Positions 15,001-18,000 of a stretch of 64,000 nt of DNA are shown piece by piece (the first letter of the stretch is position 1; every line of letters begins with the position of its first letter). The stretch comes from an uncultured Acidobacteriota bacterium (GTDB lineage: Bacteria > Acidobacteriota > Thermoanaerobaculia > Gp7-AA8). The DNA lies in contig CAWGHO010000002.1 of NCBI GenBank assembly GCA_963822445.1, forward strand, positions 1,573,787-1,637,786, in the 5' to 3' direction. The position numbers were made by a program.

Positions 15001-18000
15001 TTCGTTGTAGACCGGCATCACCACGCTGACGGCCGGCACTCGGCCGCTCGCGCTCATCGTGCAACGGCCCGCAACCGCAAACCGACCGCGGTCATAGGCA
15101 CGGCGATTTCGTTGCCGAGGTCGAAGTCTCGCACGAGGGCGATGATACCCGGCCGGGCAAACAGGGTGGCTGGGAGAACTGGTGGAGTATCGAACTGCCG
15201 TGCTCGCTCCGAGAGCTACTCAGCGCCAGCTGACAACGCGCAACCCCTGAAACTGACGAAAGTCAGCGTCGTTGAAGGTCACAAGGATTAGTTCGTTGAC
15301 ATGCGCAATGCCTGCGATCTGGCCGTCGGCGAAAGGAGGTGTTGCCCCGTGTGCGACCAGGCGGGCACGCTCCTTGGCGTGCCACTCCGCTGCGGCGCGG
15401 TTGTAGTCGAGAATAGGCATCGTCGCGAGTACGACCTCTTCGAGGTACTGAATGATTGCCTCGCGGCGGCGCGACGGCGGAAGTCGTTCGGCCCCGTATC
15501 GCAGCTCATGCCAGACGACCGATGAGATTGCAATTTCGTCTTCATGGCGTCTGAGCTTTCGGACTACACCGTGCAGTGGCTTCGGTCGAAGCGGTTCAGA
15601 CACGACATTGGTGTCGAGCAGATACTTCAAACTCACAGCCCGATTTCTCTTCCTGGTCGCGCATCCCGCAGATCACTGAAGATCTCATCGGGATCGATCG
15701 CCAGTTCGGAGAGATCCACTTCGCGAGTGAATTCATCCCACGCCTCGGAGAAGCGGCGTGATCGGGTCGCGAGACGTTCGTACTGTTTTCGGCCGATCAA
15801 CACAGCCACACTTTCGCCCCGCCTGGTCAGCACGACGGGCTCACCGGATTCTGCCTGGCGAACAAGTTGGGGGAGGTTGCTTCGCGCTGAGGCTATGGAT
15901 TGCTGCTTTGGCATCAGATGCACCACGTGTACATAGCGATGTACATCTTACCATCTGAACCGGGCCTCACAATGGCTCGCCCGTCTAAGCCACGGCAGGT
16001 CAGTGGCTTGAAAACCGTGGCTGGGAGAACTGGCGATCGAACCGCCGTGCTCGAGTGCGGCTTCGAAGAGCTCACGGCGACGCTCGCGCTCGAAGCACTC
16101 GGTCGGCACGGCGCGTGTGAGGATCGCCACCTTCATCAGCGCTGACGCAGCCGCCCGCGGCTCGACAACCACCGTCACCAGTTTCGTCATCCCGACGACG
16201 TGGCTGGGAGTATTGGCGGAGCATCGAAGCGCCGTCGTCGCTCCGACAAGCGGCAACTCGCGACAATCGACCGCCTTGCGCTCTTCGTAGCGCTGGAGCA
16301 AGATCATGAGCGTGAGCGAGCTGCGAATGAAAACGGTTGGGCACCGGAAGATTGAAGGTTCGAATGTTTGGAGTGCGGTGCAACAACTGACCGAGACCGC
16401 CGAACGAATTCGCGGCACCCGCGCGCTGGTTCCTCGGGGCGTCCAGCGTTTCACGACGTTCGAGGAGGCACATGAGTGGATGCTGGAGATGATCGCGAGT
16501 ACTCACGTCAGCCGAGGCCGGAAGATCTCACCAAAATCTGCGCCGCCCTGAATCGAGAGGGAGCTCGCTACCTTCTCATCGGTGGCTTCGCCGTCATCGC
16601 CTACGGCTTGGAGCGGCCAACGAAAGACATCGATTTCCTCATTGATGCCTCACCAGAGAACGTAGAACGGGTCAAGAGAGCCCTGGCGGTACTCCCCGAC
16701 AATGCCGTTCGAGATGTTTCTGCCGACGAAGTAGGCCGTTATGAAGTCGTTCGGGTTGCTGATGAAGTCGTGGTCGATCTTATGGCCAAGGCGTGCGGGA
16801 TTACGTGGGAAGAGGCCGCGAGCGACTCGGAGATTCTCGAATTGGATGGAGTGGAGATCCCGATCGTAGGAATCGACACGCTCATCAGAACAAAGCTCAC
16901 CGTGCGGCCTCACGATGCCGCGGATCGCGAATACTTGGAGCGTCTGCGCCGACGTTGAGAATCAACTCACGGGCCGCAACGCTGGCTGGGAGACAGGGAG
17001 TCGAACCCCGATTGAGCGGTTCAGAGCCGCTTGTCCTACCATTGAACGATCTCCCAGTAGAACGAACCTGCGGCAGGGTGCCGCGATGCAAGGTGGGGGA
17101 TGCTACATGGCCGCTAACGCCATGGTCAAGACGTGAATTCCACCGCCGTCCTCCTCGCTACGTGGCACAATCTTCGAGAGTAAACGACGCCATGTTGCCT
17201 GAAGTCTTCGAGTGCCCGCAGTGCCAGAGGCAGTTCGTCTTCGAGCTGGTGGAGGCCTCCGCCGACCAGTCCATCCACTGCCCCCAGTGCAAGCGCTACC
17301 TCGGCGAGAAGGACCTCAACTTCGTCCTCGTCAGCGAGATCGAAGAGCTCGTGGAGCGCCTCGGATTCGAGCGCGACCGTCTCGAGCGCGACGAGGCCGT
17401 CTACTCCATGACCGACTGCGATGCCGAGCTTCGCACTTACGGGACCGAGGTTCATAAAGTCGTGAACATCCTTCGGAAGACCGTGGCAGATCTCGACGCG
17501 CTCAAGCAGACTTACCGGTGAGCCTACCGCTGGACGGCGTCCTCGTCGCCGACTTCACTCGCGTCCTGGCCGGCCCCCTCTGCACCCAGCTCCTCGGCGA
17601 CGAAGGCGCGCGCGTCATCAAAGTCGAAGAGCCGGAACGCGGCGACGAGACCCGCCGCTGGGGCCCGCCCTTCCTCGGCGACTTCAGCACGTACTTCCTC
17701 TCCGTCAACCGCAACAAAGAGTCGATCACCCTCGACCTGCGCACCGAAAAAGAGCTCGCCCGGATGCTCCTCGAGCGGACCGACGTCGTCATCGACAACT
17801 TCCTTCCTCCGCAACGCGAAGCGCTCCTGGGCGACGTGCTGGCCATCAACCCGCGGGCGATTCATTGCTCCATCACCGGATTCGATGGCGATACCGCTGA
17901 AGCCAATACGCCGGGATACGACCTCCTGGCGCAGGCCGGGGCGGGGCTGATGTCGATCACCGGCGAGGCCGACGGGGAGCCGTCGAAGGCGGGAGTGGCG

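Follow-up and report, generated by a model that had tools for sequence, protein, structure and literature searches.

The closest described case to the locus considered here is that of the ssrA islands of Dehalococcoides, which are arranged in tandem and involve the CcrB-like serine recombinase DsiB (McMurdie et al. 2011, PMC3146451). Our locus lies in a 64,000-nucleotide stretch of DNA (hereafter the window) from an uncultured Acidobacteriota bacterium of the Thermoanaerobaculia (contig CAWGHO010000002.1, positions 1,573,787 to 1,637,786), in which an intact tRNA-Gln(CTG) gene is followed by three short repeats, A, B and C, that separate small gene cassettes. Probably, these repeats are attR-type scars of three successive integrations, into the tRNA gene's 3′ end, of elements carrying a large serine recombinase (LSR). 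As in Dehalococcoides, tandem units lie downstream of a small RNA gene with direct repeats of that gene's 3′ end, a conserved element-derived motif stands just upstream of the repeat, a reverse-strand LSR adjoins the tRNA-proximal attachment junction (attL), and some islands lack an integration module; such islands have been proposed there to be cis-mobilizable. The two cases differ in the target, which is tRNA-Gln(CTG) here, in the length of the shared core (10 nucleotides (nt) here versus 20 there) and in the element-derived part of the repeat, which here corresponds to the end of the recombinase open reading frame (ORF) itself. The units here are also far smaller (0.14-0.85 kb in the window), and about 306 kb of related loci recovered by sequence pattern are without a recombinase.

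Arrayed insertions are also a feature of staphylococci, in which the staphylococcal cassette chromosome mec (SCCmec) and psi-SCC elements rely on Ccr serine recombinases for insertion into a conserved gene, orfX (rlmH), at its 3′ end, with repeated integration sites. The present locus resembles SCCmec in the 3′-end integration by a serine recombinase, the arrayed sites and the existence of recombinase-less units of the psi-SCC kind. Unlike the situation here, the SCCmec target is protein-coding, and the ccr genes, which lie inside the element, stay intact on integration.

In archaea, the SSV-type "suicidal" tyrosine integrases carry their attachment (att) site within the integrase gene, and according to a 2021 review self-disrupting recombinases were known only from archaea (PMC8371274). 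Here, too, the att site would lie inside the recombinase gene, integration would separate the parts of that gene, and tRNA-linked integrase fragments persist as scars. Whereas the SSV-type enzymes are archaeal tyrosine integrases divided into two large parts, the enzyme here is a bacterial (Acidobacteriota) serine recombinase in which only the last ~15-22 codons would be exchanged and the enzyme body would stay whole. A further parallel is the integration-dependent immunity of the mycobacteriophages BPs and Brujita, reportedly described by Broussard et al. in 2013, in which the element's site (attP) is said to lie in the 3′ end of a gene and integration reportedly replaces an ssrA-like ..AA C-terminal tail, altering the protein. 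In BPs and Brujita that gene encodes a repressor and the integrase is of the tyrosine type, whereas here the gene would be that of the integrase itself.

A sequence-only reading of the window that preceded this analysis had described an intact tRNA-Gln(CTG) gene and three co-oriented repeats downstream of its 3′ end, alike among themselves yet diverged from the tRNA body, and this description was borne out by ARAGORN and Rfam, by core matches and by an nhmmer profile (Table 1). The tRNA gene is the only one in the window, no other structured RNA was found in an Rfam scan of the window, and its sequence is 100% identical to that in seven related loci (L002, L014, L017, L024, L035, L038 and L056; related loci are given L numbers throughout). 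Repeats A and C share 83% identity, A and B 79% and B and C 72%, compared with 63-69% between the repeats and the 3′ half of the tRNA, an alignment that requires gaps. The resemblance to the tRNA consists of a T-loop-like GTTCGAT and the acceptor/CCA end. The tRNA gene terminates in GTCTCCCAGCCA, and the block common to this end is TCTCCCAGCCA (11 nt) in A and B and CTCCCAGCCA (10 nt) in C; the shared 11 nt claimed earlier for all three copies hold for A and B, and the 12-mer quoted for them was wrong. Copy A had also been placed at the first base after the vapC stop codon, but its conserved block starts 6 nt after that stop (15220-15222). With at most one mismatch, the motif TGGCTGGGAGA occurs at five sites in the 64-kb window (the tRNA, A, B, C and an unrelated site at 59806), as against a mean of 0.86 sites in shuffled windows, and five sites were reached in 0 of 100 shuffles. 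The nhmmer profile of the repeat found no copy in the window beyond A, B and C.

The same arrangement was followed across related loci. Scanning one genome per species for the pattern yielded 9 loci in metagenome-assembled genomes of Thermoanaerobaculia/Acidobacteriota, and soil metagenomes yielded 37 (46 loci, ~306 kb in all); extra loci were fetched through the conserved zinc-ribbon neighbour gene. The repeat is present at over 60 soil loci of Thermoanaerobaculia. The 46 loci share a conserved repeat block of 42 nt, gCGAgCACgGCgGTTCGATACTCcgCCAGTaCTCCCAGCCA, occur with 1-4 repeats per locus in the profile search, and show a conservation among repeats that drops abruptly at the CCA end. A tRNA is in range for 13 of the 46 pattern loci, and every one is tRNA-Gln(CTG), upstream of the repeats and co-oriented with them, as it also is in the synteny-fetched L059, L060, L063 and L076. 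On the 5′ side of the tRNA, the genes for the zinc-ribbon protein, the CoA-transferase and a HAD hydrolase are syntenic at ~74% nucleotide identity between genomes, the value found for the window's 5′ flank against L002, L012, L014 and L017. Homology of the window to the syntenic loci stops at 16983 or 16978, that is, at the tRNA 3′ end. L049, a near relative, is 93.6% identical to the window over a nucleotidyltransferase (NTase) gene pair and copy C and is unrelated right past ..CCCAGCCAC. Cassette content differs between syntenic genomes, and where homologous NTase and vapBC cassettes occur in other genomes, the repeat marks their boundaries too.

The locus accordingly combines a direct repeat of the 3′ end, an intact tRNA, a synteny break at the core and foreign, variable content, which together characterize the scars of tRNA-targeted elements. 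The array has a G+C content of 59.6%, compared with 65.6-67.3% in the genes on either side (glycosyltransferase, ABC transporter and CoA-transferase) and 64.6% for the whole window. The anatomy of the locus, the core common to tRNA and repeats, the lineage-wide association with this tRNA and the breakpoints at the core are, as far as sequence comparison goes, directly visible. They show that in soil Thermoanaerobaculia tRNA-Gln(CTG) serves, across the lineage and not in one strain only, as a hotspot for integration and defence genes, and the window locus itself is an ordinary instance, holding decayed mobile-element remnants at a tRNA hotspot.

An integrase for the att core was sought, as the sequence-only reading had suggested, and was found at the same tRNA. 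Homologues of the zinc-ribbon neighbour protein led to L074, in which a 508-aa LSR (gene 8449-9975) abuts tRNA-Gln(CTG). LSR genes abut the same tRNA in L080-L084 and L085 as well, the proteins measuring 501-514 aa; the cognate integrase at attL is present in all of these loci and absent in the window. Precomputed Pfam annotation for L074, L080 and L085 gives the domains Resolvase (PF00239), Recombinase (PF07508) and Zn_ribbon_recom (PF13408), and the same three domains occur in most of the 120 best database homologues, taken here as the LSR family; an N-terminal YARVSS motif can also be read in the sequence. The ORF of the L074 LSR runs on through the core into the tRNA and ends in ..KMKESED-WLG-DRDSNPDSAVQSRLSYH*; here WLG corresponds to the core's reverse complement (TGG CTG GGA), and the 17 terminal residues come from tRNA antisense. 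Across these LSR genes, the final 20 codons of the ORF are antisense to the tRNA. L080-L085 share a backbone of the LSR, a 65-76-aa ORF next to it, a DUF87 ATPase and a ThiF-like protein. Contigs with intact elements are JGI Ga0620844_0000126, Ga0671504_0000005 and Ga0620851_0000168. The element in L085 (1-20392) exceeds 20 kb and carries two DUF87 ATPases, the ThiF-like protein, a trypsin-like protease, an N6/N4 DNA methyltransferase, an Eco57I-like gene and, at 5837-7195, a further integrase, of the tyrosine type, and is possibly a composite of two elements.

In the window and the 46 pattern loci (~306 kb), no tyrosine or serine recombinase was found by motif regular expressions, by phmmer searches using XerD, lambda Int, IntI1 and gamma-delta resolvase as queries or by Pfam on 20 larger proteins. 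L036 has a 35-aa LSR C-terminal pseudogene beside the tRNA, which is an intermediate stage of decay. The window has no recombinase body and three severed integrase-gene 3′ ends; because the repeats are such severed LSR gene ends, the earlier statement that the integrations had lost their integrases holds to the letter in the window.

That the repeats are ends of LSR genes is indicated by their translation. The reverse complement of the repeat, TGG CTG GGA GTA CTG GCG GAG TAT CGA ACC GCC GTG CTC GC, reads W L G V L A E Y R T A V L A (WLGVLAEYRTAVLA) in the LSR frame, and a frequent DNA variant, CCGCC/CGTCC, gives A/D in this tail, D being the family consensus. Among the 120 homologues, 65 have a tail of the tRNA-antisense type, and in 16 the tail is native, with W-L-[GAT]-x-[LIV]-D-[DE]-x-R-T at its core, and ends AA in 14 and VA in 2. 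In IMG/VR relatives with tRNA-like tails, the stop codon overlaps an antisense tRNA gene (Gln-TTG, Asp, Ala or Leu), and in those with native tails no tRNA lies near the stop codon (loci L087-L146). The tail motif fits 50 of 62 repeat copies, several of which retain a short ORF ending ..LAA*, ..TAA* or ..SAA*. A hidden Markov model (HMM) built from 13 native tails of distant relatives gave 73 matches at E <= 1 (best 9e-6) among 8,715 six-frame fragments of the related loci, 54 of them on repeats; the others are mostly further tail-like scars from other sub-lineages, e.g., WLGGLDGIRTLALAAA. Among the window's 1,584 six-frame fragments, copy A ranked top. The tail-plus-core signature takes the form ..CGAGCACGGCGGTTCGATACTC..CCAGTACTCCCAGCCA on DNA and W-L-G-x-L-x-E-Y-R-T in protein. 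In terms of sequence, the in-frame fusion of LSR genes to tRNA antisense, the match between repeat and tail, and the occurrence of tail plus core as distal repeats can all be read off directly.

All three window tails are decayed. Copy A on the + strand reads WLGELVEYRTAVLAPRAT.. in the tail frame and has lost its stop, copy C reads WLGVLAEHRSAVVAPTS.. and has lost the native stop, and the frame of copy B is shifted by its 4-nt deletion to WLGELAIEPP... The TCGAAC of the native tail and that of the tRNA-derived tail stand in different reading frames, so that the likeness between repeat and T-arm exists at the DNA level. Compared to the earlier account, two points have to be refined: the enzyme belongs to the serine recombinases rather than the tyrosine recombinases, and the tRNA-unlike part of the repeat is integrase coding sequence plus attP arm, not decayed tRNA. 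The serial site-specific integration into the tRNA 3′ end that had been proposed is supported by the synteny breaks, the cognate LSR and the tail match, and each check suggested with that proposal turned out to support it.

These observations suggest the following course of events. The attP of the element family would lie inside the last codons of the LSR gene, since the ORF runs through the core into tRNA antisense and the repeat encodes the native tail. Crossover would occur within the 10-bp core CTCCCAGCCA, its position being inferred. Integration would put the LSR body beside the tRNA at attL, with a new tail from tRNA antisense (..WLG-DRDSNPDSAVQSRLSYH), and would shift the native tail codons, WLG-VL[A/D]EYRTAVLA..AA, to the far end of the element at attR; the 42-46-nt repeat would then be the detached tail plus the core. 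The loose likeness between the repeat and the tRNA 3′ half may reflect recognition of attP and the tRNA site (attB) by one enzyme. Each integration would leave one repeat, newer elements presumably lying nearer the tRNA and older remnants being displaced outward. The LSR bodies and most cargo of all three window elements would have been removed later, presumably by deletion, leaving two toxin-antitoxin-type modules and a stub; addiction modules may resist deletion, as their loss harms the cell.

Several observations weigh against this course of events. First, the tail match is short, 14-17 aa, and within the window alone reached E = 0.016 for copy A, with copy C undetected by the tail HMM. Second, no free attP form was found among close homologues (>50% identity); the native tails stem from 45-50% identical relatives and from phage relatives. 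Third, an LSR body and a tail repeat were not seen in one element: the intact elements exceed 20 kb, and in the 20 kb of the L085 element that was read, attR was not reached and there was no tail repeat. Fourth, two conserved types of sequence that follow the core at many junctions, types 1a and 1b (about 60-75 nt), are not LSR remnants, and the boundaries of the NTase cassette are the same in three genomes; a discrete unit without an LSR accounts for both of these better than random deletion does. Finally, for canonical serine integrases a second integration beside an occupied site is unexpected without relaxed site choice. Relaxed site choice is known for Ccr recombinases.

The fourth point leads to the strongest alternative, in which the cassettes are still-mobile units without an integrase but with functional att sites, moved in trans by an LSR elsewhere, in the manner of cis-mobilizable elements (CIMEs) or psi-SCC. 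An integrase-less cassette system had served as the main interpretation and was dropped after the L074 LSR was found. In this form it is unlikely, though likelier than the other alternatives, and can coexist with the scar explanation. The window and the 46 pattern loci are without a recombinase, att-type sites flank recombinase-less cassettes in the window and in many related loci, as is characteristic of CIMEs, and the NTase cassette of L012, L017 and L051 extends from directly behind the core up to and including the repeat. Cassettes of differing cargo, moreover, have types 1a and 1b in common, and ORF-less units of 107-112 nt stand in tandem, three times in L007. However, the window copies are degenerate (B is frameshifted, and A and C are without a stop codon), and cassettes have been deleted and fused in L008, where they are joined with internal deletions. 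Later insertions at the tRNA would explain the differing array positions of one cassette, excision by serine integrases depends on a directionality factor, of which no example was identified, and neither a circular form nor an empty-site polymorphism of a single cassette was observed.

An integron-like platform, in which the repeats would be attC sites, the tRNA end attI and the enzyme an integron-type tyrosine integrase, is very improbable. Integrons and the clusters of attC sites lacking integron-integrases (CALINs) form arrays of small, toxin-antitoxin-rich cassettes with a repeated site and no nearby integrase (Cury et al. 2016, PMC4889954). The cassettes here are likewise small, often of the toxin-antitoxin kind and separated by a repeated site without a nearby integrase, and 13 co-oriented upstream genes end -18 to +10 nt from a repeat (those identified being PIN and NTase toxins). 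Unlike in CALINs, however, the repeat does not fold like attC: no attC-like hairpin was predicted (z from -0.6 to +1.05 for the window copies), and the R''/R' pair (RYYYAAC..GTTRRRY) is absent on reading the sequence. Cassette genes have no orientation bias (34 co-oriented versus 27 opposite), no IntI-like or other tyrosine recombinase was found nearby in the window and 46 loci, and the repeat is explained as a tRNA end joined to a serine-recombinase tail. A Xer/dif-like site was considered separately and rejected, as no dif-like arms were present on reading the sequence.

Local duplication of the tRNA 3′ half by slippage or unequal crossing-over, without any mobile element, is just as improbable. 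The tRNA-like GTTCGAT stretch and acceptor/CCA end are what such duplication would produce, but the copies are closer to copies in other genomes than to each other or to the tRNA (0.79-0.91 versus 0.63-0.69), the intervening DNA is compositionally foreign and varies among relatives, and the non-tRNA part of the repeat matches the LSR tail motif. Similarity between copies is 0.77 within arrays versus 0.79 between genomes, which argues for independent deposits and not for local duplication.

A generic dispersed intergenic repeat, of the repetitive extragenic palindromic (REP) or miniature inverted-repeat transposable element (MITE) kind, with a chance likeness to the tRNA end, would be short, conserved and non-coding in situ with many metagenome copies, as these repeats are, yet it can be set aside almost completely, because the copies occupy one locus only within the window, follow a co-oriented tRNA-Gln(CTG) in related loci wherever a tRNA is visible, have no significant single-stranded DNA fold in the window, end exactly at CCA and carry an in-frame LSR tail.

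Taking the repeats as LSR scars, the locus identifies the recombinase family responsible for the tRNA-Gln hotspot. With attP inside the LSR coding sequence, every integration leaves a recognisable piece of the integrase gene, and orphan tails provide a marker for island boundaries in uncultured Acidobacteriota. The LSR family is also a source of candidate serine integrases whose natural attB sites, in tRNA genes, are defined. A serine integrase with attP in its own 3′ end is a variant of known tRNA-targeted integration, and no description of it was found in the literature searched, as far as our searches reach.

A broader reading is put forward tentatively, with the balance of probability against it: a widespread bacterial and phage LSR clade might carry attP in its own last codons and target tRNA 3′ ends, with the C terminus set by the free or integrated state. 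The target would be Gln-CTG at the present locus, while the phage relatives would use Gln-TTG, Asp, Ala and Leu. The native ..AA/..VA tail resembles an ssrA degradation tag, and integrase stability or directionality may possibly depend on the integration state; hypothetically, the tail could act as a degron. If the ..AA tail is a degradation tag, this would be a new coupling of integrase stability to integration state. If the broader reading is true, the clade would parallel, in bacteria and with serine enzymes, both the self-partitioning integrases of archaea and the integration-dependent immunity of mycobacteriophages, and orphan "WLG..RT..AA" tails would form a simple signature for mapping past integrations. 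A search for the exact repeat pattern on viral contigs gave no match.

Table 1. Features of the tRNA-Gln(CTG) locus (window positions unless a related locus is named)
Feature	Position	Strand	Basis or remark
tRNA-Gln(CTG), intact	16983-17056	-	ARAGORN; Rfam tRNA 57.5 bits (cut-off 29 bits)
att core, final 10 nt of the tRNA, CTCCCAGCCA, encoded CCA included	16983-16992		read on + strand
Repeat A, most distant from the tRNA	15167-15213	-	profile search, core comparison, tail translation
Repeat B, 4 nt shorter than A and C by deletion	16018-16060	-	same methods as A
Repeat C	16201-16247	-	same methods as A
Post-core sequence type 1a, CGGTTTTCAAGCCACTGACC..GGCTTAGAC	15965-16017	-	also at junctions in L017, L035, L026, L024, L051
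Remnant cassette 1: 81-aa ORF overlapping AbiEii/DUF2204-type NTase	16306-16958	+	
81-aa ORF	16306-16551	+	no family match (Pfam)
AbiEii/DUF2204 NTase	16476-16958	+	PF08843 28.4 bits, PF09970 26.3 bits, both over cut-off
Remnant cassette 2: 140-nt stub without recognisable gene	16061-16200		Pfam
Remnant cassette 3: vapBC-type toxin-antitoxin pair	15220-15926	-	Pfam
Phd/YefM antitoxin	15633-15926	-	PF02604, 44 bits, over cut-off
PIN toxin, overlapping the Phd/YefM antitoxin upstream of it	15220-15636	-	PF01850, 54.6 bits, over cut-off
Chromosomal flank, tRNA 5′ side: zinc-ribbon protein and family III CoA-transferase	17192-18693	+	Pfam; synteny anchor
Zinc-ribbon/coiled-coil protein, 109 aa	17192-17521	+	stop overlaps CoA-transferase start
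Distal chromosomal flank: family 2 glycosyltransferase	13954-15057	-	Pfam; protein clustering
LSR gene, L080 and L081	10001-11506		abuts tRNA-Gln(CTG)
LSR gene, L084	10001-11545		abuts tRNA-Gln(CTG)

The cassette contents given earlier (a vapBC module, a stub, and an NTase gene with an overlapping small ORF) agree with the Pfam results, the stub measuring 140 nt. Judged by domain content, the vapBC and NTase pairs fit a type II toxin-antitoxin or AbiEii-type architecture, in which a toxin has a small upstream partner, and cassette 1 is probably a toxin-antitoxin pair. The vapBC cassette has 78% nucleotide identity to the cassettes of L051 and L008 and 68% to that of L053. The stub has no Pfam match, and no nucleotide match of at least 60 nt among the related loci. 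In the window, L049 and L046, the 81-aa ORF and NTase pair runs opposite to the repeats, whereas in L012 (2481-3232), L017 (4309-5050), L051 (594-1344) and L028 it is co-oriented with them; identity between these two classes is only 68-70%.

The 109-aa zinc-ribbon protein is a constant neighbour of tRNA-Gln(CTG), with 561 close homologues in soil Thermoanaerobaculia. On the distal side, protein clustering placed homologues of the glycosyltransferase after the last repeat in L028 and also within L019. The cargo between copies varies among loci and includes toxin-antitoxin pairs, STAND NTPases, SRPBCC and glyoxalase-like proteins, AraC regulators and kinases. Defence-type genes are frequent downstream of the tRNA, namely NACHT/NB-ARC STAND NTPases, a cNMP-binding CAP12-PCTIR TIR protein and a TPR protein (L014 1797-4919; L007 4481-7999; L018 1-3399; L078 6351-9563; L076 5600-6490; L059 4858-7413).

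Some tail-like fragments were missed by the DNA profile. They include WLGGLDGIRTLALAAA, WLGGLSAIRTCALAAA and WLGGRDNYRTAILMIAV and lie in L028 (5021-5059, 5780-5827), L048 (3399-3437, 4733-4780), L052 (3616-3663), L025 (1800-1850), L046 (2706-2756) and L058 (1479-1529). As these fragments fall outside the DNA profile, the arrays also hold scars of other recombinase sub-lineages. In L060, a repeat variant (5236-5280, 5922-5967) has a longer tRNA-shared block (..TCCCTGCCTCCCAGCCA, ~17 nt), which suggests another attP arm or crossover position in that lineage.

The sequences that follow the core were compared as well. Type 1b, ~70 nt long with TCGAAC at +52 to +55, includes a stretch like the tRNA-Gln 3′ half in inverted orientation (..GAGACAGGGACTCGAAC..CGAT), so that the junction forms a large imperfect palindrome. 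It occurs after the tRNA in L002, L014, L017, L059 and L062 and after repeats in L035 (3875), L048 (223) and L049 (641). The idea that types 1a and 1b are remnants of LSR pseudogenes was rejected, as they show no similarity when translated in the LSR frame. Type 2 units are ORF-less, ~107-112 nt long and tandem, and consist of the core, a GC hairpin (e.g., GCCGGCACGGCCGGC), GTTGGCCNAGCCTCC.. and the next repeat; several copies continue as a palindrome, AGCCTCCTTGGAGGCT, with a T-rich tail, and are terminator-like. They are found in L007 (4109-4379, three units), L036 (5131-5278, 11901-12063) and L044 (10806-10955), and type 2 sequence stands directly 3′ of the tRNA in L008, L042 and L051. Type 2 may be the native tRNA terminator region carried along, or a mini-cassette. 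In the window, a short GC hairpin, CCCGGCCGGG, follows repeat A and is like the first hairpin of this recurrent type 2 sequence.

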